Below are positions 4,657 through 18,395 of a stretch of DNA of 58,495 nucleotides, piece after piece. The notes beneath the pieces were generated by a model. It was not told the DNA's origin, made no database searches, and saw nothing but the letters and a program-made list of their open reading frames with translations. This DNA is from a virus. Lineage: Duplodnaviria > Caudoviricetes. Location: IMG/VR virus record IMGVR_UViG_3300006918_000002, positions 1 to 58,495 of that record; one strand, written 5' to 3'. Every line of letters starts with the position of its first letter. Position 1 is the stretch's first letter. A program made the position numbers and the translations under genes.

Positions 4657-5220
4657 ATGTTCACTGTGTACTTTCTCCACCACGAGTCCTCCCTCACCGC
4701 AATGGCTCTCAGCGACGACCACCTTCGGGAGCAACTGGTCGAGACGGAGAGCCTTCTCGAGGTCCTGCGCCAAGGCGGCGATCAGTCGAAGTTGTTGGCG
4801 TACCGGATGTTTCGAGGCTACGACATGTTCCTGCTGCGCCACTTGTGGCAGCTCGCCCACGAGGGCCGGAGACGCAGGATGTGCGGTTACGGGGCTGACG
4901 ACCCGTATCTTCGGCAGCACGCGCAGTTCCAGCGGCACGGGATCCCCCTCGTGCTGAAGGTCCCGCGCTGGTCGGGAGCAGCGTGGCTGTACGAGTCGCA
5001 CCGGTCACAGATGATCCTCCGTGACCCGGCTCACTACGCCTGGCGCTTTCCCCGGACCCCGCTGGGGATGCCGTACCTGTACCCCCAGAACGTTCCCGGC
5101 CACTTCGAGTTCACCGTTGACGTGGCGCTGGGGGATCGGCTCTGGCTGAAGGACGGCCGTCGCGTGATCCCCCGATCTATGCTCGAGAAGTACACCCATC
5201 TCCAGGAGGCGTTCGTATGA
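4657..5220 (+). CDS. Pyrimidine-dimer DNA glycosylase/endonuclease V-like protein (MSMEG_6728-like), degenerate
   Basis: L-DD-L-EQ-VE, RMFRGY, PRW-G, ESHRSQM-LRDP-HY, PY-YP pattern recalls this family. Confidence 0.6.
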   Translation: MFTVYFLHHESSLTAMALSDDHLREQLVETESLLEVLRQGGDQSKLLAYRMFRGYDMFLLRHLWQLAHEGRRRRMCGYGADDPYLRQHAQFQRHGIPLVLKVPRWSGAAWLYESHRSQMILRDPAHYAWRFPRTPLGMPYLYPQNVPGHFEFTVDVALGDRLWLKDGRRVIPRSMLEKYTHLQEAFV

Positions 5221-6047
5221 CCACGGTGTTGGTGCTGGGCTGCGGTCCGGCGGGGCTGTTGGCCGCGCACGCGGCTAGCTACGTCGAGGGCGCGAAGGTG
5301 GTGATCGTGAGCGCCAAGAGGAGGTCGGATCTGTACGGGTGCCAGTATCTCCACAGCGCGATCCCCGGGCTTCGGTTGGCACGCACCGAGGTCTCCTACG
5401 AACTGCTCGGGAACGTCGCGGACTACGAGGCCAAGGTGTACGGCGCACCGGGGGCGGGCGGTCCGGTCAGCCCGACGCTCTTCTCGGGCCGTTACCCCGC
5501 GTGGGACATCCGGCAGGCATATGACCTCCTGTGGTCCCGCTACGAAGCCAAGATCCTGGACGTCCAGCTGTCCCCCGAGATGATCCGCCCGATGATCGAG
5601 TACTACGAAGCGGATCTGGTCGTGAGCAGCGTCCCGCTCCCCGTGCTGTGCCAGCGCCCCGAGGAGCACTCGTTCTCCGGCATCACGTGCTGGGCGATGG
5701 GCGACGCTCCCGCGCTGGGACAACGGGTTCCCGTGCCGTGCCCGGAGGACACGGTGATCTGCGACAGCACGCGCGACACGGGGTACTACCGCGTCTCCCG
5801 CGTGTTCGGGCACTCCACGGTCGAGTGGCCGGGACACCGCCATCGCCCGCCGATCGAGGGAGTGGTCAAGTTCACGAAGCCGTTGGCCACGACGTGCACG
5901 TGCTGGCTCGGCATCGGAGACACGCCGGACCAGCGTCCCGTCGTGCACCGCGTCGGGCGGTTCGGCCGGTGGCAGAAGGGGATTCTGGCGCACGAGGCGT
6001 TCAACGACACGATCAAGGCGCTCTCGGCGCTGGCGGAGAAGGTGTGA
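5217..6047 (+). CDS. FAD/NAD(P)-dependent oxidoreductase
   Basis: N-terminal VLVLGCGPAGLLAA Rossmann motif; C-terminal VGRFGRW as in UDP-galactopyranose mutase/amine oxidase-type flavoproteins. Confidence 0.8.
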   Translation: MTTVLVLGCGPAGLLAAHAASYVEGAKVVIVSAKRRSDLYGCQYLHSAIPGLRLARTEVSYELLGNVADYEAKVYGAPGAGGPVSPTLFSGRYPAWDIRQAYDLLWSRYEAKILDVQLSPEMIRPMIEYYEADLVVSSVPLPVLCQRPEEHSFSGITCWAMGDAPALGQRVPVPCPEDTVICDSTRDTGYYRVSRVFGHSTVEWPGHRHRPPIEGVVKFTKPLATTCTCWLGIGDTPDQRPVVHRVGRFGRWQKGILAHEAFNDTIKALSALAEKV

Positions 6048-6274
6048 TGTTCGCTAAGATCAGGATCGACTTCGAAGACGGCATGTACTTCATGGCCTCC
6101 CGCGTGGAGTACACCGAGGACCAGTTCTCCCTGGAGGAGAGCGAGTTCGACAGGATCACCGTCGAAGGGGAGTCCGTCGTGCGGGAGACCCTGAAGGGCG
6201 TGACGCTGGGGTTCCAGGGCGTCGCCCGCCCGAACGACGACGGCACGCTGTACGAGTGGGGGAAGTCGGAATGA
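6047..6274 (+). CDS. Hypothetical protein
   Basis: TGATG coupling upstream and ATGA coupling downstream; MFAKIRIDFEDG... Confidence 0.65.
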   Translation: MFAKIRIDFEDGMYFMASRVEYTEDQFSLEESEFDRITVEGESVVRETLKGVTLGFQGVARPNDDGTLYEWGKSE

Positions 6275-6939
6275 AGGCGAAGCTGGCCCCGCGCAGAGCG
6301 ATGAGCGCGACGCCGGGAACGGTGCTGCGCCCCGTTGTCGGCATCGACATCGACGGCACGCTGGCGTTCTGGCACGAGCACTTCCTCTGGTTTGCCAGCG
6401 AGTACACCGGGAAGAAGATGCCGGAGAAGTTCACCGGAGCGGGATCCCTTTATCAAGAGATGGGGATGAGCAGGACGCTCTACCGACAGATCAAGCTGGC
6501 ATACCGGCAGAGCGGCCTGAAGCGCGCCATGAGCCCGGTGCCCGGGGCTGCCGACATGGTGGCTGCGGTGCGCAAGGCGGGGGCGGAGGTCTGGGTCTGC
6601 ACGACGAGGCCGTACCTGCGCCTGGACAACATCGACCCCGACACCCGGGCATGGTTGCGCCGCAACAGGATCACCTTCGACGGCGTCCTGTTCGGCGAGA
6701 GAAAGTATCAAGACCTCGCCACGCTGGTAGGCTCAGAACGGGTCATCGGCGTCATCGATGACCTGCCGTACCAGGTGGAGAACGCGGAGCGTGCGGGGCT
6801 GAAGGCTCGGATGATTCAGCGGACGTACAATCAGAGATGGTGGGGTCAGTTGCGCCACGACCCCCTCCCCTCTCTCCCCGCAGCCCGCGTGTGGTTGGCC
6901 GACGAGATCCATCGATGGAAGGGAAGCAACGGTGTCTGA
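6271..6939 (+). CDS. HAD-superfamily phosphatase, 5'(3')-deoxyribonucleotidase-like
   Basis: DIDGTL motif I, CTTRP motif II, K, IDDLP motif IV, YN near the C-terminus. Confidence 0.85.
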   Translation: MKAKLAPRRAMSATPGTVLRPVVGIDIDGTLAFWHEHFLWFASEYTGKKMPEKFTGAGSLYQEMGMSRTLYRQIKLAYRQSGLKRAMSPVPGAADMVAAVRKAGAEVWVCTTRPYLRLDNIDPDTRAWLRRNRITFDGVLFGERKYQDLATLVGSERVIGVIDDLPYQVENAERAGLKARMIQRTYNQRWWGQLRHDPLPSLPAARVWLADEIHRWKGSNGV

Positions 6940-7408
6940 GAAGAGCAGGGATCAGGTGTGGAACGTCTTCGCGGAAGCGCTCCAGACCTTCGACGTGAAG
7001 AACGCCGACTACGGTGACGCGTGGCGCAAGAGCGGATGGCGCGGCAACCTGCCCCGCATCTTCGAGAAGGTCGAGAGGGTGCGCGAGCTGCTGTGGCGGC
7101 CGGACCCCCGGACCCCTGCGGTGAACGACGAGTCGGCCGTGAACACGTTGGTGGACCTGATGAACAGCATCGCGTTCGCCGTGGTCAATCTCCGCGAGGA
7201 GGTCGAGTACGGCAGCGAAGTGCCGCGCAGCGAGCGCACCGCCTGGAACCCCAGCGTCGACTCGATCATGTCCCGGGAGGCCCCGACGACCGTGGTGCCG
7301 AACCACCTTCTGTCGGAGACCTTCTCCCCCGCGCACGTGACGCCCCTCGACGAGCCCGAGAAGATCTCCGTGGCCAAGCGGCCGATCGTGGACAACCCGC
7401 AAGCGTGA
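6932..7408 (+). CDS. DUF1599/Nmad1-like nucleotide-modification-associated all-alpha protein
   Basis: F-KNADYGDAW...RIFEK-ER...ES-NTL-DL-N pattern. Confidence 0.7.
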   Translation: MSEKSRDQVWNVFAEALQTFDVKNADYGDAWRKSGWRGNLPRIFEKVERVRELLWRPDPRTPAVNDESAVNTLVDLMNSIAFAVVNLREEVEYGSEVPRSERTAWNPSVDSIMSREAPTTVVPNHLLSETFSPAHVTPLDEPEKISVAKRPIVDNPQA

Positions 7409-7468: not shown

Positions 7469-7633
7469 ATGCCCTGGACGTGGTATCTGGCGAAGTGCGA
7501 GGACTGCGAGCCCCCGCTGTCCATCCCCTTCCGCGCCGAGCAGGCTCGGGATGAGTGGGTCGAGGCGCATCGCTGGGGGACGGAGAAGTTCAAGGAGGGC
7601 GGCCACACCGTGACCAAGGGCGGTCACGACTGA
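7469..7633 (+). CDS. Small Zn-finger protein
   Basis: GGAGAG RBS; CEDC...RDEW-EAH...GH; coupled to dnaE. Confidence 0.6.
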   Translation: MPWTWYLAKCEDCEPPLSIPFRAEQARDEWVEAHRWGTEKFKEGGHTVTKGGHD

Positions 7634-10600
7634 TGGCGCGTCAGTTCGTGAACCTGCACCACCACACCACGATGAGCTACGGCGACGGGTTCATGCAACC
7701 CGCCGACCACATGAAGGCGATCGCGGAGCTGGGCTACCCCGCTGGCGCGGTCACCGAGCACGGCAACGTGAGCAGTCACGTGCGCTGGGAGAAGGCGGGG
7801 CGGGAGCACGGCGTCAAGCCGCTCTTCGGGGTCGAGCTGTACATGGAGACCGACGACCCCCGGGGCCAACTGAAGAACCACCTGACCGTGATCGCGGAAA
7901 CCCAAGCGGGGTACAGCAATCTCCTCCGGCTGGTCAGTGAGAGCTGGGAGAACTTCCAGTACGTGCCGACGACCACGCCGGAGATGCTGGAACGGTTCTC
8001 CGAGGGTCTCGTGGTGAGCAGCGGGTGTCTCGGGAGCCGCCTGGCGACGGAGCTCCTAGGCGGCAAGGGATCCGACGAGAAGAAGCGCGCCGACCTCGTG
8101 GCGGGCGGTCGGGTCGTCGGGTGGTTCAAGGAGGTGTTCGGTGATCGGTACTTCCTCGAGGTGATGCCGCACCCGGCTCTCCAGAAACAGGCGCGGTATA
8201 ACGAGATCCTCGGGGAGCTGAGCACGCGGTACGACGTGCCGTTGGTGGCGACGCTCGACTGTCACTACCCGTACCCCAGCGACCAGGAGATGTACCCGGT
8301 CCTCCACGCCATCAAGCGCGGTGGCCGTAGCAACACCGTGGAGGCGCAGAGCCAGGGGTGGGAGTACGACATCATGCTGGCCCCACGGGACCCCCGGGAC
8401 ATCTACAGGGACCTGAAGGCCACGGGGCTGCACCGCAGGCAGGCAGGCGCGGCGATGGCGGCGACCCTGGACATCGCCGACCGGTGCACGGTGGAGATCC
8501 CGAAGTTCCGAGACCTGGAGTTCCTGTCCGCAGAGCCCGCCGACGAGCTGCTCCGTCGATGGGCTCGAGAAGGGTGGAAGTACCGGGGGTTCACCGCTCT
8601 GCCTCGGGCGCAGCGTCGCGCCTACGTCCGGCGGGTGAAGTACGAGCTGGAGCTCATCATCTCGAAGGGCTTCGCCAACTACTTCCTCGTCGTGGCGGAC
8701 ATGGTGAAGTGGGCCAAGGATCACGGGATTCCCGTGGGCCCCGCCCGAGGTTCCGCCGCAGCCTCGCTCGTCTGCTACCTGCTGCGGATCACCGAGGTCG
8801 ACCCGATGCACTTCCCGAACCTCATCTTCGAGCGGTTCATCGACCTCAACCGCCACGACCTGCCCGACATCGACCTCGACTTCGACGACGAGCAGCGCTG
8901 GCGGGTGCGGGGCTATCTGGTCGACAAGTACGGGGCGGAGCGCGTCGGCAACATCGGCACGTTCACCAACTGGCGCGGGAAGAACAGCCTCGATGACATC
9001 GCCCGGGTGTACCGGATCCCGCCTGGTGACGTCGAGGCCGTGAAGGAGATGATCATCGAGCGATCCTCGGGTGACCTTCGGGGCAACAGCACGCTCGAGG
9101 ACAGTGCGGCGATGTTCCCGAAGGTCGCGGCCATCATGAAGAAGCACCCGCATCTCCTGAAGGCGCAGAAGCTCGAGGGCAACATCCGGGGCATGAGCGT
9201 GCACGCGGCGGGGCTGGTCGTTGCCAACGAACCGCTCACCAACGGGGTGGCGGTGTACACCCGAGAAGACAGCAAGACCAAGCTGCGGACCAGTGTGCTC
9301 AGCATCGACAAGTACGACGCCGACTACATCAACGCCCTGAAGATCGACGCGCTGGGGCTCACCACGATGGGGATGATCCGGCGCTGCCTGGAGATGATCG
9401 GCCTGAGCCTCGCCGAGCTGTACGCGGTGAGCCGCGACGAGGAGGAGGTGTACGAAGCCTTTCGCCGCAACGAGGTCATCGGGATCTTCCAGTTCGACGG
9501 AAGGGCGATGCGGTCGGTGAACCGGGAGGTGAAGCCAGACAACTTCGCGGAGGTCTGCGACATCAACGCGCTGGCCCGCCCGGGGCCGCTGCACTCCGGC
9601 GCGGCAGCGGAGTACATCCAGGTGAAGCACGGACGCAAGAAGGCGCTCCACCTGCACCCGGTGGTCGATGAGATCACCAAGCACACCAACTTCCAGATCG
9701 TGTACCAGGAGCAGATCCTCCGGGTGGTGCGGGAGCTCGGCAACTTCACGTGGGAAGAAGCCGCCACCATCCGCAAGCTCATCTCCAAGAAGCAGGGCGA
9801 GCAGGCGTTCAACCGGATGCAGGAGTTGTTCCTGAAAGGCTGTCGTACCAACGGAGTCCCGGAGACCAACGCGCAGAAGATCTGGAAGCAGCTCGTGACC
9901 GCCGGTGCCTACGCCTTCAACGCGGCGCACTGCGTCTCGTACGGGATGCTGGCGTACTGGACCATGTGGCTGAAAGTGAAGTACCCCTTGGAGTTCTACT
10001 GCGCTGCGCTCCAGAAGTACGACCCGAAGACCAAGGGCTTCGACCTGCTGAAGGAGGCCAGCGCGCGAGGCATCCCGATCCTCCCGCCCCACCCCGTCTT
10101 CAGCACCGTGACGTGGTCGGTCGACACGAGGGAGAAGGGGTTGCGGGCGGGCTTCACGCAAATCGACGGCATCGGCGAGAAGACCGCTGTGGCCATGGTG
10201 GAGTGGCGTGACGGAGAGGACATGCCTCCAGCTCGAGTGCTCGGTCACCGTCCGGATCTTTGGCCGAACGGCTTCGGTTGGCAGGACTTTACGGAGGTGA
10301 AGGGGGTCGGAGCGGCGACCATGAAGAAGGTCGAGGCCTTCGTGGCGCAGGAGGACCCGTTCGGGATCACGCTGCTGAGCCGGAAGCTCGAGGAGGTTCG
10401 GCGGTGGCTGTGGGAGCACGGCGACGAACACGCCCTCCCCATGGCGCGCTCCCGCAGCGAGGACGTTCCCTACGAAGCCAAGCCTGGCCAACACTTCTGG
10501 CTCGGTGCGGTGCGGGAGCGCAACCTGAAGGACCTGTACGAGCTGCACCGCTCGCGGACTGGCGAGGAGCTGGATCCCGGGCAGGTCAAGGAACCGCAGC

Positions 10601-10824
10601 ACATCAACTGGTGTGTGGTGACGGGAGAGGATGAGACCGGACCGCTGACCGTGACCGTGCACCGCTTCCGGGGGCTGTACGAGAAGTACAAGGATCGCCT
10701 CTGGGAGTTGGACCCGAAGAGGGACCTTCTGTTGGTGCGCGGGCTGAAGCGGCGGGAGTACCGCCGTGCGTTGTATGCCGAAGAACTCTGGATCATCAAC
10801 ACCGAGACAATGAGGGTTTCATGA
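7633..10824 (+). CDS. dnaE: DNA polymerase III alpha subunit (family C)
   Basis: PHP domain (LHHHT-S-GDG, TEHG, GVE, DCHY); GPARGSAAASL; PDIDLDF; SVHAAG; KIDALGL; YQEQI; YAFNAAH. Confidence 0.97.
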   Translation: MARQFVNLHHHTTMSYGDGFMQPADHMKAIAELGYPAGAVTEHGNVSSHVRWEKAGREHGVKPLFGVELYMETDDPRGQLKNHLTVIAETQAGYSNLLRLVSESWENFQYVPTTTPEMLERFSEGLVVSSGCLGSRLATELLGGKGSDEKKRADLVAGGRVVGWFKEVFGDRYFLEVMPHPALQKQARYNEILGELSTRYDVPLVATLDCHYPYPSDQEMYPVLHAIKRGGRSNTVEAQSQGWEYDIMLAPRDPRDIYRDLKATGLHRRQAGAAMAATLDIADRCTVEIPKFRDLEFLSAEPADELLRRWAREGWKYRGFTALPRAQRRAYVRRVKYELELIISKGFANYFLVVADMVKWAKDHGIPVGPARGSAAASLVCYLLRITEVDPMHFPNLIFERFIDLNRHDLPDIDLDFDDEQRWRVRGYLVDKYGAERVGNIGTFTNWRGKNSLDDIARVYRIPPGDVEAVKEMIIERSSGDLRGNSTLEDSAAMFPKVAAIMKKHPHLLKAQKLEGNIRGMSVHAAGLVVANEPLTNGVAVYTREDSKTKLRTSVLSIDKYDADYINALKIDALGLTTMGMIRRCLEMIGLSLAELYAVSRDEEEVYEAFRRNEVIGIFQFDGRAMRSVNREVKPDNFAEVCDINALARPGPLHSGAAAEYIQVKHGRKKALHLHPVVDEITKHTNFQIVYQEQILRVVRELGNFTWEEAATIRKLISKKQGEQAFNRMQELFLKGCRTNGVPETNAQKIWKQLVTAGAYAFNAAHCVSYGMLAYWTMWLKVKYPLEFYCAALQKYDPKTKGFDLLKEASARGIPILPPHPVFSTVTWSVDTREKGLRAGFTQIDGIGEKTAVAMVEWRDGEDMPPARVLGHRPDLWPNGFGWQDFTEVKGVGAATMKKVEAFVAQEDPFGITLLSRKLEEVRRWLWEHGDEHALPMARSRSEDVPYEAKPGQHFWLGAVRERNLKDLYELHRSRTGEELDPGQVKEPQHINWCVVTGEDETGPLTVTVHRFRGLYEKYKDRLWELDPKRDLLLVRGLKRREYRRALYAEELWIINTETMRVS

Positions 10825-11474
10825 TGAGCTTTCGCGACCTGCTGAACATGGCCGACCAGACCGAGCTCCGCCGGGACGCGGAGGATGAATTCTCCGCCCT
10901 CGTGCGGTCGGTACTACACGACGTTCACGCGAGCTGGCAGGAGCAGAACGCCATCCTGCGCGGGCTGCTGGGGGCAGGCACGCACGTCGATGAGATGGCG
11001 CTGCTGTTCGCCGGAGAGCACGCACTGGCAGCGTTCGTGCGGTACGCCGTGCGAGAGCGAGGCTACGAGCTCTTCAACACGGCGTGGGACCACGTGGCCA
11101 CTGGCCCTATCCTCAGCCACTACGACGTGTCGTACTGGTTTCTGCGCACCCCGGGGTACGAGCCCGGGAAGAAGGGCTACCGGCTTGAGCTGATGTCGTT
11201 GCTGAGCCACGGTTCTCCGCTCCACGACAGGATGGCCGCCTTGGCGACGGGAGAGATGCGCTACCGCCCGGTGCACGCGTCGTTCAAGTGCCCCGACGAG
11301 GAGGCGTACGGCACGGCCGTCAACACGCTGAGGAAGGGCGGGTACGAGCTGGCGCAGCGCTGCTCCTCGAGCTACGGCCAGTTCTCCTACTGGCAGCACT
11401 ACGCGGCCGAGGGGACCCCGGGGTGGTTCCTCAAGCCCCGCGTGAACCTGCGTGACGAGGACGTGTCCGAGTGA
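10821..11474 (+). CDS. Hypothetical protein, possible VOC/glyoxalase-fold enzyme
   Basis: HVDEMALL...RLELM...HASFKCPDEEAY-AV-LR-GY resembles VOC beta-alpha-beta-beta-beta repeats. Confidence 0.5.
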   Translation: MMSFRDLLNMADQTELRRDAEDEFSALVRSVLHDVHASWQEQNAILRGLLGAGTHVDEMALLFAGEHALAAFVRYAVRERGYELFNTAWDHVATGPILSHYDVSYWFLRTPGYEPGKKGYRLELMSLLSHGSPLHDRMAALATGEMRYRPVHASFKCPDEEAYGTAVNTLRKGGYELAQRCSSSYGQFSYWQHYAAEGTPGWFLKPRVNLRDEDVSE

Positions 11475-12163
11475 ACGGCCCGACGCTCCTGGTGGTGGGA
11501 GCCCAGGACGGATCCCTCGGGGCGAGAATCTCTGTGGCTGCGGGGAAGGCGGGGTTCGGGGAGGTGCACACCGCTGGCCTCGGCACGGAGGAGCACGCGT
11601 GTGACGTGCGGAACACCAACGCCCTCAAGGAAGTTCTGCGGCTCACGAACCCGGACTACGTGGTGTGCACGGTCGGGGTCAACCAGCCCGCCGGGATGAC
11701 GGCGTCGAGGCTCCGGATGTTCATGGGGGACTCTTTCGAGACCAACGTGACCGGACCGATGGAGTTGCTGCGGCTGTTCCTGGACATGCCGCAGAAGCCG
11801 TCCTTCATCAAGAAGTTCGTGGCGATCAGCAGCAACAGCGCCAGAATCGCGCGCACGCAATCGATCCCGTACTGCGCCAGCAAGGCAGCCCTGTCGATGG
11901 CGTTGCGGGTGGCCGCGCGGGAGACGGCACGCTGGGAGACACGGGTTCTGATCTGGGGGTACGAGCCGGGTCTGCTGGCTGACACCCCCATGACGCACGA
12001 GACCGTGGCCCAGTGGGGCGACGTGCCCCTGCACCGGATGCCCGGGGTCGGCGCAGAAGGGCTGAACGCCAACACCTTGGCCGACCGGGTGGTCTTGGAC
12101 CTCGCACACAGCAGCGTGGGCTACCACGGGGTGCTGTTCCCGTTTGACGCCGGGGAGCAGTAG
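11471..12163 (+). CDS. Short-chain dehydrogenase/reductase (SDR)
   Basis: VGAQDGSLG, ACDV, VGVN, ETNV-G, ISSNS, YCASK (YxxxK), PG-ADTPMT. Confidence 0.9.
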   Translation: MNGPTLLVVGAQDGSLGARISVAAGKAGFGEVHTAGLGTEEHACDVRNTNALKEVLRLTNPDYVVCTVGVNQPAGMTASRLRMFMGDSFETNVTGPMELLRLFLDMPQKPSFIKKFVAISSNSARIARTQSIPYCASKAALSMALRVAARETARWETRVLIWGYEPGLLADTPMTHETVAQWGDVPLHRMPGVGAEGLNANTLADRVVLDLAHSSVGYHGVLFPFDAGEQ

Positions 12164-12264
12164 TCCAGTTCTGTTCTCTCTGGTGTGTGGTTAATGCACG
12201 ACGGTACGGTGGTGTCTCTCGGCAGTAGTGGGCGGGGAGACCCCGCCGTACCAGGAGGGCGAAC

Positions 12265-12588
12265 ATGGGCGACACCAAGGGTTTCAGCGAGAAGGTTCTC
12301 GCCGTGCTGCTTCAGTACCGCAATCAGACCGTGACGCTGGCGCAGATCTGCACCGCCACGGGTTTCTCGGAGACGTTGGTACAGCGCACGGTGAACAACC
12401 TGAAGGCGAAGAAGGAGATGCACTACTCGATCACCGTGGTCATCCGGGGGCGGGCGTGGGTGTTGCGTGACGCGCCCCCGGCGGTGGACCCGGGGAAGCG
12501 GATCTTCGAGGAGATCGGCGCAGCCAGGGACGGCAGCGTCGTCATTCAGGACAGCGCGGGGAAGCTGTACCGCGCGGTCGAACTGTAG
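12265..12588 (+). CDS. Winged-HTH-like DNA-binding protein
   Basis: VTLAQICTATGFSETLVQRTVNNL; GGAGG RBS. Confidence 0.6.
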   Translation: MGDTKGFSEKVLAVLLQYRNQTVTLAQICTATGFSETLVQRTVNNLKAKKEMHYSITVVIRGRAWVLRDAPPAVDPGKRIFEEIGAARDGSVVIQDSAGKLYRAVEL

Positions 12589-12598
12589 AGGAGTTCCT

Positions 12599-12871
12599 GT
12601 GCCGGAGCTGAACATCGCCATGGCAGACAAGGCGAAAGACGTGATCGCCGTCATCGAGGAGCAGGGAGACTTCCGCGCGTACCGCCTGGCGATGGAGTGG
12701 CCCTCGCTGGCTGCTGCGCTGGGGGAGCTGATGGAGGCGGCGGACGTGGTGCTCCCCGCCCCGTTCCGACACGCGATGATCGCGGTGCGGGAGGGGGTCC
12801 GACCCGTCATCAGCCAACCGCAACGGTTGCGCGGTGTCGAGGGGCCGACGCTCCCGAGCGGGAAGATCTGA
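12599..12871 (+). CDS. Hypothetical protein
   Basis: GAGGAG RBS, GTG start, coupled to the next ORF. Confidence 0.55.
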   Translation: MPELNIAMADKAKDVIAVIEEQGDFRAYRLAMEWPSLAAALGELMEAADVVLPAPFRHAMIAVREGVRPVISQPQRLRGVEGPTLPSGKI

Positions 12872-13143
12872 TGGAGGAAATGATGAAGGGTCTCCTCAGG
12901 CAGGTCAACGAGGAGACGTACGCGCCGGAGCTCCAGGACGGCGACCTCCGCGAGGGCGTGCGGAGTGTGTTGGAGCTGGCCGACAACGAGGAGAACTACA
13001 GCGACCCGCCGCACACCCTGGAGTCCCGGCGGTCCGCCTGGCGCGGTGGTTACCTGACCGCGATGCGAGACGTGATCGAAGCACTGGCCGACGAGTGGGG
13101 CATCACCTACACGCAGGAGCAGAACGATGGAGGAGAGAAATGA
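12871..13143 (+). CDS. Hypothetical protein
   Basis: TGATG overlap; phage-like composition. Confidence 0.6.
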   Translation: MEEMMKGLLRQVNEETYAPELQDGDLREGVRSVLELADNEENYSDPPHTLESRRSAWRGGYLTAMRDVIEALADEWGITYTQEQNDGGEK

Positions 13144-13616
13144 GAAGGTCTCGGCAGGAGAGGCTGGAGGGGGCGCGGGAGATGCTCGGGTCCTCCCTCG
13201 GACGCGCGGCGCACGGTGGGACGACTTCCCCGCCCTCCCGCTACCCGCAGCCTGGCGTCCGGCAGACCGAAGCGCTGACCGGGGCTAGGCTCATCACCGA
13301 GCGGGGATGGGTGCGGCCGGTCGCGGTCAGCCACCTGTGCTACCCGCCCCAGCAGTACCCGGACCAGTGCGGACCGGGGTCGCAGTGGCAATGCGCGTGC
13401 GCGGCGTTCTGGGTCGCTCAGGGCGTGGCCGTGCACAAGTACCCGGTCGGCGTCGGCCAGGTGGCTCGGGACGTGATCCTGGGGCCGGAGTACTGGACGT
13501 GGATGGAGGGCACCGGGTCCGCCGAACCCGAGAACTACCGAGCCCAGCAGGCGTACTGGGATTGGCGTCCGGCCGCAGACAAGATCCTCGAGCACTTGCG
13601 GGGGCAGCAGCCGTGA
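13140..13616 (+). CDS. Hypothetical protein with Cys motif
   Basis: ATGA overlap; HLC...GSQWQCACAAFW. Confidence 0.55.
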   Translation: MRRSRQERLEGAREMLGSSLGRAAHGGTTSPPSRYPQPGVRQTEALTGARLITERGWVRPVAVSHLCYPPQQYPDQCGPGSQWQCACAAFWVAQGVAVHKYPVGVGQVARDVILGPEYWTWMEGTGSAEPENYRAQQAYWDWRPAADKILEHLRGQQP

Positions 13617-13750
13617 GCGGCGAGATGATGCTCGTGGTGCTGCTCCTGGCTCTCCTGGTCGCGGTGTACCTCAAGGGCCGTAGGGACGGGGCGGAGTCGG
13701 TGCGCGGCTCCGTCCGGGAAACGCTGTGGGGCAAGGAGAAGAAGCAATGA
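13613..13750 (+). CDS. Small membrane protein
   Basis: LVVLLLALLVAVYLKG; GTGA/ATGA coupling. Confidence 0.55.
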   Translation: MSGEMMLVVLLLALLVAVYLKGRRDGAESVRGSVRETLWGKEKKQ

Positions 13751-14277
13751 ACCGTCGTGTGGTGTACCTGTCCGGGCCGATCGCCGGATACCCGGAGGGC
13801 AACGAGAAGGCGTTCCGCGCGGTGGCGACGTACCTGGAGGCCCAGGGGTACGAGGCGATCGTGCCGCATGACCTTCTGCCTGCTGTGCACGAGGGGGAGT
13901 GCCCGAAGGGGTACCGCTCGGAGGGGGCGCGGCACGCGGCAGCGTGCCACCTGCGGTCGGACCTCGTGGAGATGCTGCGCCACGCCGACGAGATCTGGAT
14001 GTTGCCCGGGTGGGAGTCCTCGGTGGGGGCTCGCCTGGAGATGCAGGTCGCCGCCGCGTGCGGTCTCCCGGTGCTGTTCCTGGCCCACGAGATGGCGACC
14101 GCCTGGCGCAGGGTCGAGCCCGAGATCACCAGGGCGGCGAAAGCCTTGCGGGACATGGGTCTCGTGATCGCCGAGCCCGAGCTGGACAGCGAGGACCCGT
14201 GCGGTCACGAGGCGCGAGACCGTAGCGGCCACTGCTTCGAGACCGAGTGCATCAACTACGCCGGAGGATATCGGTGA
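13747..14277 (+). CDS. DUF4406-like protein (nucleoside 2-deoxyribosyltransferase-like fold)
   Basis: VYLSGPIAG-P-GN-AF...ADEIWMLPGWESSVGARLE. Confidence 0.8.
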   Translation: MNRRVVYLSGPIAGYPEGNEKAFRAVATYLEAQGYEAIVPHDLLPAVHEGECPKGYRSEGARHAAACHLRSDLVEMLRHADEIWMLPGWESSVGARLEMQVAAACGLPVLFLAHEMATAWRRVEPEITRAAKALRDMGLVIAEPELDSEDPCGHEARDRSGHCFETECINYAGGYR

Positions 14278-15632
14278 ACGACAAGGAACTGAACGAGCAC
14301 GAGGGCTCGCGCCTGCACACCCCCGACGAGTGGTCGGTGGTCGACGGGGTGACGGTGATGGACCCCGACGGGTGGCGTTTCCGCGTTCGGGTCAGCGAAT
14401 CCGAGGACTACCTGCCCCGCCCCTGGGGGGACCGCATCACCCGCCAGGAATGGGACGCCCGGGTGGGCGTGAGCTCGACTTCCCGCAAGAGGAGGAGCAC
14501 CGAGGTCCAGCGTTGGGCTGACACGGCCATGTTCCGCAGTGAACCGCTCGACGCCACCACGGGGCCGAAGGTGCATCTCCTGCACATGAACAACGACCCG
14601 CTCGGTGCCATCGCGGCGTTCGCGTTGATGTACAAGGGGATCGTGGTGCGCGACCTCGCCGACGTCACCGACGAGCAGCGCCGGGAGATGTTCGAGCAGA
14701 TCAAGCAGACCCGCCTCAAGGCACCGTTCGAGGCGGTCTCGCTGCACTGGATGGTCGAGGGGGTGACGCGGTCCCTGACCCATCAGATGGTGCGGCAGCG
14801 CACGGCCGTCTTCGCCCAGGAGTCCTTGCGCTTCGCTGTGGTGGAGGATGACTTCACCGACCGGGTCGCGCTGCCCCCGTCGTTGGTGGGGACTGAAGGC
14901 ATGTGGAGGCACTACGAGGGCGAGGCGCTCAGCCTGCTCGCGCCTGCCGACGCCGGTGACCCTGCGGTTGACCGGTACGTCTCGGAGAGGATGGCGCGGG
15001 AAACCGAGGAAGAGAAGAAGCGATGGGCCTGGGATCAGGCGCTGTCCAAAGTCGAAGCGCAGTACAGCTATCTTGTCGAAAGCGGGATGCCTGCCGAAGA
15101 CGCGCGAGGACTGTTGCCGCACAACATCACCACGCGTCTCAACTACAAGACGGACCTCCGCAACTTCGCCGAGCAGGCGGGGTCGCGGCTGTGCACGCAG
15201 GCTCAGTTCGAGTGGCGCGCGCTCTGGATCGCCTTCGTGCAGGAGCTGCGCCGGTACGGTCGCACGATCACCTACACCGTTAACGAGGCCTCTCGACCGG
15301 GTGGTGTCAAGCTTCCGGTCTTCAAATCCTCGTGCTGGCAGTTCGACCTCATCGCCGAGCTGTTCCGGCCTGCCTGCTACCTCACGGGCAAGTGCGAGTT
15401 CGCCGCAATGGACCTCGACCGCAAGTGCAGCATCCGCAACCGGGTCGACGCCAACCACGAGATCGGTCGGCAGCCCTCGGAGTGGGGCAGCGAGCACGAC
15501 GTGGTGGAGGACGGTCCGATTGTCTCGGGCGTCGGCCCGAAGTCGGTGGTGCGTAACGAGGGCGGGGAACCCGTGTTCATCGGTGCCATCGACCCGCGTG
15601 AGTGGTTGGCCGACCCCGGGGCTGCGCGATGA
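14274..15632 (+). CDS. thyX: Atypical ThyX-like flavin-dependent thymidylate synthase with an N-terminal extra domain
   Basis: PFE, EGVTRSLTHQMVRQR-AVFAQESLRF, PAEDARGLLP, RLC-AQFEW; GGAGG RBS before GTG 14274. Confidence 0.8.
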   Translation: MNDKELNEHEGSRLHTPDEWSVVDGVTVMDPDGWRFRVRVSESEDYLPRPWGDRITRQEWDARVGVSSTSRKRRSTEVQRWADTAMFRSEPLDATTGPKVHLLHMNNDPLGAIAAFALMYKGIVVRDLADVTDEQRREMFEQIKQTRLKAPFEAVSLHWMVEGVTRSLTHQMVRQRTAVFAQESLRFAVVEDDFTDRVALPPSLVGTEGMWRHYEGEALSLLAPADAGDPAVDRYVSERMARETEEEKKRWAWDQALSKVEAQYSYLVESGMPAEDARGLLPHNITTRLNYKTDLRNFAEQAGSRLCTQAQFEWRALWIAFVQELRRYGRTITYTVNEASRPGGVKLPVFKSSCWQFDLIAELFRPACYLTGKCEFAAMDLDRKCSIRNRVDANHEIGRQPSEWGSEHDVVEDGPIVSGVGPKSVVRNEGGEPVFIGAIDPREWLADPGAAR

Positions 15633-17236: not shown

Positions 17237-17946
17237 CCGGCCACAATGAACAGTGGCAGCCGCGTCTCCCGGTGGGGGCGCGGCTTGCCGCAGTGAACGG
17301 CGAACGCTGGCTGGTGGTCGCGGCCGACCTGGACCTCGGGTCGGGGAACACGATCTACACCGTGCGCAGGCCGTACCTCGTGCCCCCGCCCGGGTCCACG
17401 ATCTGGGACGCCACGCTGGCCCCCCTGGACTTCAGGATGTCGGAGGAGTTCCTTCTCGAATTGATCCACAGCTTCAGTGTCGGAGGTGAGGGCAGTGACC
17501 GAACGTCGCCGAGGGAATCCCCAGCGGTACTACCAAGAACGCCAGAGGAAGACGGCCGACGCCCCGAAGACGGGGCAGCCCTGGACCGCCGAGGAGCTCG
17601 TCGTCGCGCTCGACACGTCGCTGACTGGCGTCGAGGCAGCACAACGGCTCGGGCGCACGTGGGCGGCCGTCGCCAACGTGCGGAGGGCGCGGCGAGGATC
17701 ATCCGGGACCGGGCGAAGGCGCGGAGAATCCGGCACTCCTGGCTCTTCCTCCTCGTCGGACTGACCCTCTTCGTGCTGGGGGTGGGGAACGTCTACTGGG
17801 GTGTGACCGCGCCCCTGACGGCTCTTCGGGCGGTCCAGGTGGTCGGTGGCCTGCTGGCCTATGCCGCTGGGCTCTGCCTTGTCACCGTGTCATTCTCCCG
17901 AGAGGCTAAGCGTTCTCGGCCTCGACAACGAAAGCAGACGTCATGA
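17233..17946 (+). CDS. Hypothetical ORF with two C-terminal TM helices (may be two genes lacking a separating stop)
   Basis: Coupled at both ends, but the middle reads poorly where another frame codes an HTH protein. Confidence 0.4.
   Translation: MTGHNEQWQPRLPVGARLAAVNGERWLVVAADLDLGSGNTIYTVRRPYLVPPPGSTIWDATLAPLDFRMSEEFLLELIHSFSVGGEGSDRTSPRESPAVLPRTPEEDGRRPEDGAALDRRGARRRARHVADWRRGSTTARAHVGGRRQRAEGAARIIRDRAKARRIRHSWLFLLVGLTLFVLGVGNVYWGVTAPLTALRAVQVVGGLLAYAAGLCLVTVSFSREAKRSRPRQRKQTS
17495..17764 (+). CDS. Myb/HTH-like DNA-binding protein
   Basis: GGAGGTG RBS; PWTAEEL...LTGVEAAQRLGRTWAAVANVR. Confidence 0.6.
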   Translation: MTERRRGNPQRYYQERQRKTADAPKTGQPWTAEELVVALDTSLTGVEAAQRLGRTWAAVANVRRARRGSSGTGRRRGESGTPGSSSSSD

Positions 17947-18395
17947 GCTATGACCCCACGCCGGAGGCGCGACCCGCCCCGGTGCTGAACCTGCGTGCGG
18001 TGATGAAGACCACCGCCCTGACGGCGATCTACCCCGAAGCGGGTCTCGGTGCCCCGCTCGCCCTCCTGTACGTCGCGTGTGGCCTCGCCGGGGAGGCAGG
18101 GGAGACCGCCAACAAAGTGAAGAAGATCGTGCGGGACGACGCGGGGCGCGTGACCGACGCCCGCCGCGACCAGATCGTGAAGGAGCTCGGCGGGACGTTC
18201 TGGTACTGGCTGCGGCTGTGCGCCGAGCTGAACCTCGACCCGTACGAGGTGATCCACGAGAACATGAAGCTGCTCACGCTCCGGGCTGCGGACGGGACTC
18301 TGGGCGGGGACGACCAGGAGGACGGCTCCCGCGTCGCCGCCGCGATGATGGCGGAGCAGGGCCACTTCCCGGAGAACGGGGAGGCGCGGCGATGA
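17943..18395 (+). CDS. MazG-like nucleotide pyrophosphohydrolase
   Basis: GLAGEAGE-ANKVKK-RD...KELG-FWY...N-KL-R. Confidence 0.88.
   Translation: MSYDPTPEARPAPVLNLRAVMKTTALTAIYPEAGLGAPLALLYVACGLAGEAGETANKVKKIVRDDAGRVTDARRDQIVKELGGTFWYWLRLCAELNLDPYEVIHENMKLLTLRAADGTLGGDDQEDGSRVAAAMMAEQGHFPENGEARR

Follow-up and report, generated by a model that had tools for sequence, protein, structure and literature searches.

ThyX, the flavin-dependent thymidylate synthase, is both an antibiotic target and a model of flavin-mediated carbon transfer. The canonical enzyme uses FAD and NADPH to make dTMP from dUMP and methylenetetrahydrofolate (CH2-THF), and is a homotetramer in which three subunits contribute to each active site. 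In the enzyme of Thermotoga maritima (TM0449), His53 is described as stacking on folate or on the reduced flavin and as hydrogen-bonding Tyr91 and Asn85 (PMC11940539), while Tyr91, beside Arg90, is the proposed general acid and Arg174 is said to activate the substrate, deoxyuridine monophosphate (dUMP) (PMC11940539, PMC8316439). The family signature RHRx7S is that of Myllykallio 2002; as quoted in PMC2826268, the filter built on it allowed up to two deviations. The ThyX mechanism has been argued from His53, Tyr91 and the histidine of RHR. The gene considered here belongs to a virus-only clade that lacks these three residues and keeps the rest of the site. It is carried by the IMG/VR virus record IMGVR_UViG_3300006918_000002 (Duplodnaviria; Caudoviricetes), the whole of which (58,495 nucleotides, nt; CheckV completeness 93%) is called the window below. 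The reading preferred here, to which we give a probability of roughly 0.5, is that the gene encodes a divergent but working flavin-dependent dUMP methylase whose product would be thymidine monophosphate (dTMP).

The longest open reading frame of the gene runs from 14247 to 15632 and would encode 461 amino acids (aa). The preferred start is the GTG at 14274, which has GGAGGA 6-11 nt upstream and shares a 4-nt overlap (GTGA) with the TGA stop of the upstream gene. The resulting 452-aa product is identical to P0001 in a public protein collection and agrees with the length of about 450 aa given in an earlier note made from the letters of the window. Pfam Thy1 (PF02511) matches residues 114-335 of the 461-aa reading over profile positions 5-186 of 191, with 94.4 bits against a cut-off of 24.8 (E 1e-26); a six-frame Thy1 search of the window gave 96.2 bits for the same gene, and PHROG thymidylate-synthase families also match. 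An AlphaFold model of the monomer, built on 56 homologues, has a mean predicted local distance difference test score (pLDDT) of 88.4. Its top Foldseek matches are ThyX only (E 1e-8, target template-modelling (TM) score 0.68-0.70). With VIA-align the best matches are the ThyX of Helicobacter pylori (3n3y; Z 15.7, 194 residues aligned, root-mean-square deviation (rmsd) 2.8 Å), of Mycobacterium tuberculosis (3gwc; Z 14.4) and of T. maritima (Z 13.9). These alignments cover model residues 92-366 or further, and 47 ThyX or PolB entries lie at Z 12.2-15.7, the next entry reaching only Z 2.7.

The predicted structure therefore has the ThyX fold, and aligns with the canonical enzymes over about 200 residues (Z 13-15.7, rmsd 2.6-3.3 Å), although the protein is twice as long. 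PolB, the polyoxin UMP/dUMP C5-methylase, has been cited as a precedent for substrate change among ThyX paralogues (PMC5954106). It is a ThyX-fold enzyme, neofunctionalised and equipped with extra loops (PDB 4p5a/4p5b, Z 12.8-13.2), but its fold score is no closer than that of ordinary ThyX (13.2 for 4p5b, against 13-15.7). Moreover, PolB is cellular, about 240 aa long and shifted in substrate at the ribose, and the window protein gives no hint of such a shift. Because it scores below the TIGR02170 equivalog cut-off, departs from the literal RHR signature and lacks the equivalents of Tyr91 and His53, the protein is filed here as a variant of ThyX whose function is not to be taken for granted. 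It belongs to Pfam Thy1 and to the annotated actinophage 'ThyX-like' group, to the account of which the window adds a residue-level map, a clade tree, an all-or-none pattern of four cysteines (Cys4), the mobility of the N-terminal module and an argument from restriction sites, all presented below.

The residue map was obtained by alignment to the T. maritima (and Thermus thermophilus) ThyX chains, with roles transferred by alignment. The T. maritima chains carry a 12-residue tag, and the offset was checked on 8rep, a Y91F mutant with Phe at chain position 103. Conservation was read from 56 sequences picked from 265, comprising full-length long forms and six short relatives. The motif quoted in the earlier note lies at residues 170-187 and its RQR, at 174-176, is indeed aligned with the T. 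maritima RHR. The signature is thus read as R174-Q175-R176-x7-S184, with both arginines and the serine kept and His replaced by Gln. Since the quoted filter tolerated up to two deviations, RQR alone would not exclude the protein from ThyX. Invariant in the alignment are E153, R166, Q171, R174, R176, S184, R186, A277, R278, P282, R305 and Q309, together with C368, C374, D382, R383 and C385, whereas L148, F187, C307, E275, Q182 and E183 are among the residues conserved in at least 90% of sequences.

The equivalents of R78, R80, S88, R90, R147, R174, Q75, E58 and E144 of canonical ThyX are kept. His79, His178, Asn163, Arg165, Arg147, Glu144 and Gln75 are taken by us to play their parts in the dUMP site or the site of flavin adenine dinucleotide (FAD). 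As far as the alignment shows, all residues that correspond to those binding the phosphate and uracil of dUMP or activating it are retained, and most FAD contacts too. A changed nucleotide substrate, one of the options of the earlier note, is accordingly not favoured, the aligned dUMP-contacting and activating residues (R174, R176, S184, R186, R278, R305, Q171 and E275) being all in place. The departure from canonical ThyX lies in the flavin/folate pocket and is wider than that note had recognised: His53 becomes Leu148, His79 Gln175, Asn85 Ala181, Tyr91 Phe187 and His178 Gln309. Taken together, these changes, the sub-equivalog score and the conserved cassette of nucleotide enzymes described below make it possible that the enzyme uses another carbon donor or handles its cofactor differently.

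We infer that both FAD and dUMP are bound and that C5 receives a carbon unit. A one-carbon adduct would form on flavin N5, the carbon would then pass to C5 of dUMP, and FADH- would reduce the exocyclic methylene, giving dTMP for the phage's own DnaE replicase. The His53/Tyr91/Asn85 gate and the flavin contacts His79 and His178 are lost, with Leu, Phe, Ala, Gln and Gln in their places. Acid catalysis could be taken over from Tyr91 by the clade-specific Glu183, beside Ser184, or by water, or the rate may be low and yet sufficient. A Phe in place of Tyr91 is also found in the solved ThyX of Corynebacterium glutamicum. The neighbouring flavoprotein, nucleotidase of the haloacid dehalogenase (HAD) type and short-chain dehydrogenase/reductase (SDR) might be a source of reducing power or of the carbon unit, or might keep the nucleotide pool in check. 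A metal site formed by the four cysteines would fasten a clade-specific insert to the helix of Arg305, and the N-terminal module would be accessory.

Several observations favour this methylase reading. Besides the family and fold matches given above and, as described below, a dUMP-supplying deaminase in one relative and T that seems unshielded in the window, the gene is the only thymidylate-synthase-like gene of the phage, which fits a plain supply of dTMP: the window has no ThyA-family match and exactly one Thy1 match. The same is true of related viruses. Among the records of 80 related viral loci, the 40 that are at least 50 kb long contain ThyA in no case and exactly one Thy1 match in every case. 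The invariance of the site over a clade of 117 clusters (50% identity, E<=1e-30) also argues for catalysis under selection.

Other observations weigh against it. The NCBIfam equivalog TIGR02170 gives the protein 71.2 bits, below its cut-off of 87.9. Phe stands at the position of the proposed general acid in at least 90% of the clade, and the folate/flavin-stacking His53 is replaced by Leu. Tyr91 and Ser88 are termed strictly conserved in PMC8316439 and PMC11940539, which also report a 100- to 1000-fold loss in T. maritima Tyr91 mutants, at the carbon-transfer or flavin-oxidation step. The C. glutamicum enzyme, the sole solved Phe form, bears a PDB title that calls it 'atypical ... not required for thymidylate biosynthesis'. 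Moreover, although plain ThyX needs no partner, the virus-only 276-aa flavoprotein encoded upstream accompanies the clade in 37 of the 40 related records (and in 30 of the 31 of those at least 90% complete), and in isolated Gordonia (46) and Microbacterium (36) phages it is counted exactly as often as the ThyX-like gene. A cousin of the enzyme (27% identity) is found in Pbunavirus phages, in which hypermodified T is reported (PMC12191111), and the literature searches found no assay of any clade member. For comparison, TIGR02170 scores 80.8 for another clade member (P0121) and 88.3-111.9 for short RHR-type relatives.

The long, RQR-bearing form is a pattern beyond chance. Of 8,000 candidates scored in a word-indexed search, 2,188 reached E<=1e-5. 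The best 120 of these were listed and 118 of them have RQR, the other two giving no match to the search pattern. An exhaustive search of representatives at 50% identity gave 1,227 matches at E<=0.001 and 117 at E<=1e-30, in which the middle residue of RxR is mostly Q and also N, T, S, G or E. Among 289 sequences fitted to the profile, 166 show Leu, Gln, Phe and Gln at the positions of His53, His79, Tyr91 and His178 with all four cysteines, and the remainder are mostly fragments or differ only at the middle residue of RxR. In a quick maximum-likelihood tree of 80 rows, where long branches outside the long-form group make the placement of those branches unsure, the long forms are one group of 55 rows (Shimodaira-Hasegawa-like approximate likelihood ratio test, SH-aLRT, 99). 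Their middle residue is Q in 36, T in 9, N in 4, S in 2, G in 2, E in 1, unread in 1 and His in none. The window protein lies inside an all-RQR subgroup of uncultured viruses (support 99). The tree thus indicates that the ancestor of the clade, if not an earlier one, had already given up the histidine of RxR, with subsequent drift among small polar residues. Because the middle residue varies so freely, its side chain is unlikely to be a specificity switch, and RQR as a functional switch was rejected. The tree bears out the altered signature of the earlier note as a real and clade-wide trait, and makes a change that sets specificity unlikely.

Near-absence from the genomes of 185,579 cellular species, each represented once, indicates that the long clade is essentially viral. 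Only two full-length close relatives and one fragment were found there, all three on contigs of metagenome-assembled genomes (MAGs), one of which is 65 kb long and phage-sized; on these counts, a recently captured cellular gene was rejected. In GenBank phages, 504 records match the protein, and in 110 of these the match spans 80% or more of it. Sorted by the genus of the host, the 504 comprise Pseudomonas (291), Gordonia (46), Microbacterium (36), Mycobacterium (28), Escherichia (27), haloviruses and others. Full-length matches in actinophages bear the annotation 'ThyX-like thymidylate synthase'. Literature searches, supplements excepted, gave no paper on the loss of the histidine or on what chemistry the clade performs. 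Apart from these long forms, a separate group of ThyX-like proteins of about 300 aa, with RYR for RHR and Leu at the His53 position, was observed on archaeal MAG contigs (L093-L098, L101 and L104) from Njordarchaeota, Nitrososphaerota and Thermoproteales. A related IMG/VR record (G038:C1:52071-52754) has a Thy1 match with one in-frame TAG, which may reflect an error in sequencing, a disrupted gene or stop-codon recoding.

The isolated members of the clade include the 'ThyX-like' proteins of Mycobacterium phages Troll4 (gp68), Erk16 and PLot, Gordonia phages GOATification, Sampudon and Zany, and Microbacterium phages TinyMiny and Rie18. Identity to the window protein is 36-46% over residues ~70-452 for the actinophage group, which shares a cassette of oxidoreductase, nucleotidase, FabG-like SDR, DnaE and MazG as well as related capsid genes. 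The window differs from it in the added 76-aa N-terminal module, in its position in the uncultured all-RQR subclade, in a flavoprotein gene 8 kb upstream and in a DUF4406 gene coupled to the start of the ThyX-like gene.

Compared with canonical ThyX, the protein is enlarged by a clade-specific N-terminal lead-in, an insert of about 100 aa that bears the Cys4 set and a conserved tail ending in AAR. These additions correspond in part to the inserts and fusion announced in the earlier note. Its N-terminal DPDGW domain of about 85 aa is present and measures about 76 aa (DPDGW at residues 30-34). This module is variable or absent in most clade members and occurs only in the nearest relatives of the window protein. 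However mobile, it is recognisable elsewhere: the same stretch of about 60 aa (TPDEW...DPDGW...ITRxEW) is fused to the C-terminus of a 213-aa DUF4406 protein in a relative (P0388) and stands free as proteins of 79-80 aa (P0389, P0390). The longest contig recorded for P0388 is 59,570 nt, as it is for P0005, a ThyX-like protein of 362 aa. Small hypothetical proteins encoded by Rhizobium and Microbacterium phages match the module weakly (E ~1e-3), and a search of the ESM Atlas with the module gave no score of 0.9 or more, no structural TM of 0.5 or more and no family name. By its distribution it appears to be a shuffled accessory small domain with a moving gene boundary, so that a role of the fusion, as in the reading of the earlier note, is not supported. 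The module may link the ThyX-like and DUF4406 enzymes, or the gene boundary may merely drift.

The helical insert is present as announced, at residues ~198-262 with model helices at 210-221, 230-240 and 245-269. Its length varies across the clade, and it is partly common to actinobacterial ThyX, the best profile alignment. The cysteines proposed as a Cys-rich C-terminus are likewise present, at residues 307, 368, 374 and 385, but they do not form a terminal domain, since the insert at ~333-430 precedes the conserved tail; the cysteine of 'SSCW' is not conserved. Cys368, Cys374 and Cys385, in the insert, are invariant, and Cys307, two residues past the catalytic Arg305, is at least 90% conserved. 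In three aligned sequences, among them that of Microbacterium phage Rie18, all four are replaced together by S, D, R and S. This all-or-none pattern points to a probable structural metal site that would staple the insert to the active-site helix bearing Arg305, and a catalytic or redox-active cluster was rejected on the same three sequences. The homologue of Streptomyces phage Wentworth (L107, 16364-17410), which has RSR, contains two CxxCxGxG motifs, presumably zinc fingers, in its C-terminal third. The tail is also widely shared: DPGAAR is the most frequent ending (n=40) among the last six residues of 125 full-length homologues, and the VIA alignments to M. tuberculosis ThyX extend to model residue 451.

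Table 1. Coordinates of the ThyX-like gene, its aligned residues (T. maritima residue = window residue) and neighbouring genes in the window.
Feature	Position (nt)	Strand	Basis
ThyX-like gene, 452 aa, GTG start	14274..15632 (stop codon 15630-15632)	+	Open reading frame list, start context, Pfam Thy1
N-terminal accessory module, residues 1-76, DPDGW at 30-34	14274..14501	+	pLDDT 49-88
ThyX core, residues 77-332, including clade-specific 'KWAD' lead-in	14502..15269	+	Pfam match, VIA alignments
Helical insert, residues ~198-262	14865-15059	+	Gappy columns in 56-sequence alignment
Clade-specific insert, residues 333-430, Cys368, Cys374, Asp382, Arg383, Cys385	15270..15563	+	Invariant columns
Conserved C-terminal tail ...EWLxDPxAAR	15564..15629	+	Consensus of homologues
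His53 = Leu148	14715..14717	+	At least 90% conserved in 56-sequence alignment
Glu58 = Glu153			Alignment; invariant
Gln75 = Gln171			Alignment; invariant
Arg78 = Arg174			Alignment; invariant
His79 = Gln175 (RQR 174-176)	14793..14801 (RQR)	+	Alignment
Arg80 = Arg176			Alignment; invariant
Asn85 = Ala181			Alignment
Glu86 = Gln182			Alignment; at least 90% conserved
Leu87 = Glu183			Alignment; at least 90% conserved
Ser88 = Ser184	14823-14825	+	Signature serine retained; invariant
Arg90 = Arg186			Alignment; invariant
Tyr91 = Phe187	14832..14834	+	At least 90% conserved
Glu144 = Glu275			Alignment; at least 90% conserved
Arg147 = Arg278			Alignment; invariant
Asn163 = Asp294			Alignment
Arg165 = Arg296			Alignment
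Arg174 = Arg305 (R305-L-C307-T-Q309)	15186..15200 (R305 to Q309)	+	Invariant
Asp176 = Cys307, first Cys of Cys4 set			At least 90% conserved
His178 = Gln309			Alignment; invariant
Virus-only flavoprotein, 276 aa, GxGxxG	5217..6047	+	phrog_8720 E 6e-76
NT5C-type (HAD) deoxyribonucleotidase	6256..6939	+	Pfam NT5C E 1.2e-6
DUF1599 ('nucleotide modification associated domain 1')	6932..7408	+	Pfam E 8.7e-6
DnaE-type DNA polymerase III alpha	7555..10824	+	Pfam DNA_pol3_alpha E 1.2e-69
FabG-like SDR	11471..12163	+	Pfam adh_short E 9e-12
DUF4406 (nucleoside 2-deoxyribosyltransferase-like), translationally coupled upstream	13726..14277	+	Pfam E 1.4e-20, phrog_355 E 1.2e-27
MazG-like nucleotide pyrophosphohydrolase	17943..18395	+	phrog_229 E 1.3e-22

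The conserved cassette of nucleotide enzymes around the gene was confirmed in related loci. Neighbours were counted by tblastn with the window proteins within 10 kb of the gene in the 80 related viral loci, where contig ends make all counts lower bounds. DnaE was found in at least 70 of the 80, the 276-aa flavoprotein in at least 60, the NT5C nucleotidase in at least 48, a phrog_1981 protein in at least 36, the SDR in at least 20, DUF1599 in at least 17 and DUF4406 in at least 11. Oxidoreductase, phosphatase, SDR or MazG, DnaE and ThyX-like genes also occur together in phages Troll4, GOATification, Rie18 and Wentworth, and Wentworth carries in addition a deoxycytidine monophosphate (dCMP) deaminase, a supplier of dUMP, upstream of the cassette. 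In Rie18 (L003; ThyX-like protein and DnaE at 9019-10338 and 11501-14852), the annotation splits DnaE into two genes, 1,038 and 2,298 nt in length. Another member of the window cassette is a 217-aa protein encoded between DnaE and the SDR (10821-11474), which overlaps both by 4 nt, has no family match and occurs near the ThyX-like gene in 8 of the 80 related loci.

The flavoprotein companion is present in 126 isolated-phage records, of Gordonia (46), Microbacterium (36), Mycobacterium (32), Streptomyces (9), Arthrobacter (2) and Nocardia (1). It gives only weak, sub-threshold N-terminal matches to FAD-binding Pfam families, and searches of PDB chain sequences with this protein, the SDR and the DUF4406 protein gave nothing useful beyond the Rossmann motif. 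Its model (pLDDT 93.4) is closest to uridine diphosphate (UDP)-galactopyranose mutase (UGM; 4dsg, Z 14.6, 258 of 276 residues, rmsd 4.0), followed by class-A flavin monooxygenases (Z 13.4), protoporphyrinogen oxidase (12.7) and D-amino-acid oxidase (DAAO; 12.4). It is predicted to be a minimal two-domain flavoprotein. Cys145, Cys182, Cys227, Cys229, His46, His151 and His259 are invariant in it. Just upstream of its gene, positions 4657-5220 encode a 187-aa protein with a sub-threshold match (E 0.006) to Pyr_excise, a pyrimidine-dimer DNA glycosylase family, and Rie18 has a homologue of this protein upstream of its oxidoreductase. A DNA glycosylase-like protein in the cassette could matter for base-level chemistry.

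A tentative alternative, less probable than the methylase, is that the enzyme performs the first, pre-replicative step of a thymidine-hypermodification route. The C5 of dUMP would still be activated through flavin N5, but either free formaldehyde or a bigger aldehyde, for instance a sugar or its phosphate, would replace the folate methylene as carbon donor, or the flavoprotein, SDR and HAD phosphatase would rework the product. A modified dUTP analogue would then reach the private DnaE. Several features of the clade are consistent with this. The folate-stacking His53 and its Tyr91 and Asn85 partners, with the roles described in PMC11940539, are lost clade-wide, a large clade-specific insert and tail surround the active-site helix, and the HAD phosphatase, SDR and DUF1599 stand in the cassette. 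According to PMC8316439, T. maritima ThyX can already use free formaldehyde via a flavin N5 carbinolamine, and UGM, which the co-inherited flavoprotein resembles, forms flavin-N5-sugar adducts.

The comparison with Pbunavirus bears most directly on this alternative. Phages F8 and 14-1 are reported in PMC12191111 to contain thymidine derivatives of 362 and 390 Da, replacing about a quarter of T; the modification is inferred there to lie in a TG motif, and genes of known pathways are described as lacking. Literature searches found no paper that names genes for the Pbunavirus T modification. The ThyX proteins of Pbunavirus (PB1, F8, 14-1 and DL60 gp47) and of Escherichia coli phage FEC19 (Wifcevirus) fall in the same wider branch as the window protein. 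They share with it an aliphatic residue for His53, a non-His RxR (RTR) and Cys after the Arg174 equivalent and downstream, and in both a HAD phosphatase and DnaE are adjacent. In DL60 gp47, for example, a ThyX of 305 aa, the signature reads RTR, His53 is replaced by Ile, Tyr91 by Ala and Ser88 by Thr, and a Cys follows the equivalent of Arg174. The neighbouring Pbunavirus DnaE is 37% identical to that of the window, and FEC19 adds a FabG-like SDR. However, these ThyX proteins are only 26-27% identical to the window protein, form a separate subclade, are 276-305 aa long and differ by Ser88->Thr, Tyr91->Ala and His178->Arg. Between the window flavoprotein and a 331-333-aa GxGxxG protein of Pbunavirus and Wifcevirus, BLASTP aligned the first 15 residues only and hhalign 22 columns (80% probability), and neither showed homology beyond the Rossmann motif. 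A 290-aa neighbour in FEC19, considered as a flavoprotein, was rejected since it is the HAD phosphatase. The link from the window clade to these hypermodified phages is no more than suggestive.

The smaller mass can be read in two ways. By our own arithmetic, 362 Da equals deoxyuridine with C5H11O4 at C5, the compound that an aldopentose would give if it reductively alkylated dUMP and the phosphate were then removed, but it equally equals an O-linked tetritol on 5-hydroxymethyl-deoxyuridine (5-hm-dU). A mark reported at TG sites and on only some 25% of T suggests that a sequence-specific enzyme acts after replication. The window itself adds other difficulties. Its open reading frames gave no recognised glycosyltransferase, TET/JBP-like dioxygenase, 5-hydroxymethyluracil (5-hmU) DNA kinase or ThyA-like hydroxymethylase in Pfam and PHROG searches, which divergent forms could escape. 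The phage would be left without a dTMP synthase of its own. As the 'committed enzyme' of a modification pathway, which the earlier note thought likely, the gene is therefore not singled out: a sole thymidylate-synthase-like gene fits plain dTMP supply equally well, and a recognised glycosyltransferase, 5-hmU DNA kinase or TET/JBP gene is missing from the window.

The restriction-site content of the window is also relevant. Observed counts over the whole window were compared with an order-2 Markov expectation, giving 0 of 50 expected for GCCGGC, 0 of 48 for GGCGCC, 1 of 56 for CCGCGG and 2 of 32 for GGGCCC. T-containing palindromes with T in a TG context are avoided too (CTGCAG 0 of 21, GCATGC 1 of 20), and TGCA is low (129 against 185). 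The avoided 6-bp palindromes are, we assume, typical of actinomycete type II restriction enzymes. The pattern points to hosts akin to Streptomyces or Nocardia and to a phage that counters restriction chiefly by lacking the sites. Since a masked T would lessen the need to purge such sites, the avoidance of CTGCAG and GCATGC makes T at TG seem unshielded. This is weak evidence against a Pbunavirus-like TG mark in the window phage, as a modification need not block every enzyme, and it counts against the hypermodification route.

A more speculative and rather doubtful proposal is that the long clade is a folate-independent reductive C5-alkylase of dUMP, fed with an aldehyde (formaldehyde or sugar-derived) by the UGM/DAAO-like flavoprotein. 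Reduced flavin would condense with the aldehyde, hand the carbon chain to C5 of dUMP and reduce the chain. This could yield dTMP without folate in some phages and a thymidine bearing a sugar alcohol in others, such as Pbunavirus. If true, it would be a second, ThyA-independent entry into thymidine hypermodification.

Flavin-dependent hydroxymethylation of dUMP is improbable. Here water, not hydride, would be added to the exocyclic methylene to give 5-hm-dUMP, as in the SPO1-type ThyA-like enzymes. The remodelled active site (loss of His53, Tyr91 and Asn85) would be compatible with such a reaction, and the MazG-like pyrophosphatase and the deoxynucleoside monophosphate (dNMP) nucleotidase could clear a competing pool of dTTP and dTMP. 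Known thymidine hypermodifications are described as beginning from 5-hm-dUMP (PMC8989533). Nevertheless, unlike the SPO1, M6 and ViI type of system, the window was not found to have a ThyA-like hydroxymethylase or a 5-hmU DNA kinase and transferases. Neither a dNMP kinase specific for a modified nucleotide nor any 5-hmU-processing gene was recognised in it. Literature searches gave no precedent for a hydroxymethylase of ThyX fold, and the T-containing restriction sites are avoided. A non-catalytic protein of ThyX fold, for example a nucleotide sensor or a replisome scaffold, would agree with the loss of His53, His79 and Tyr91 and with the score under the equivalog cut-off, but is very unlikely, since a deep clade keeps all Arg, Ser, Gln and Glu residues aligned with the dUMP/FAD site unchanged, which is not expected of a pseudoenzyme.

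If the clade still makes dTMP, as the methylase reading holds, it would show which ThyX residues are dispensable and hint that the reaction can run with the help of a partner, or perhaps without folate. Otherwise the clade enzyme would be the best candidate for the starter enzyme of thymidine hypermodification in therapeutic phages of the Pbunavirus type, and perhaps in hundreds of actinophages. Such a role, if true, would bear on restriction evasion and on the sequencing and engineering of these phages. Isolated and easily grown relatives exist on Mycobacterium smegmatis, Gordonia and Microbacterium hosts.

The G+C content of the window is 62-70% and its confident genes all lie on the + strand. 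It encodes a primase-helicase, a DnaE-type polymerase, an SNF2 helicase, an exonuclease and a Sak4-like annealing protein for replication, and terminase, portal, capsid, tape measure, holins and an Rv2525c-like lysin for the virion and lysis. GenBank phages contain no DNA near-identical to the window, and the nearest relatives of its capsid and replication genes are found in Microbacterium, Arthrobacter, Mycobacterium and Gordonia phages, at amino-acid identities of 49% or less.

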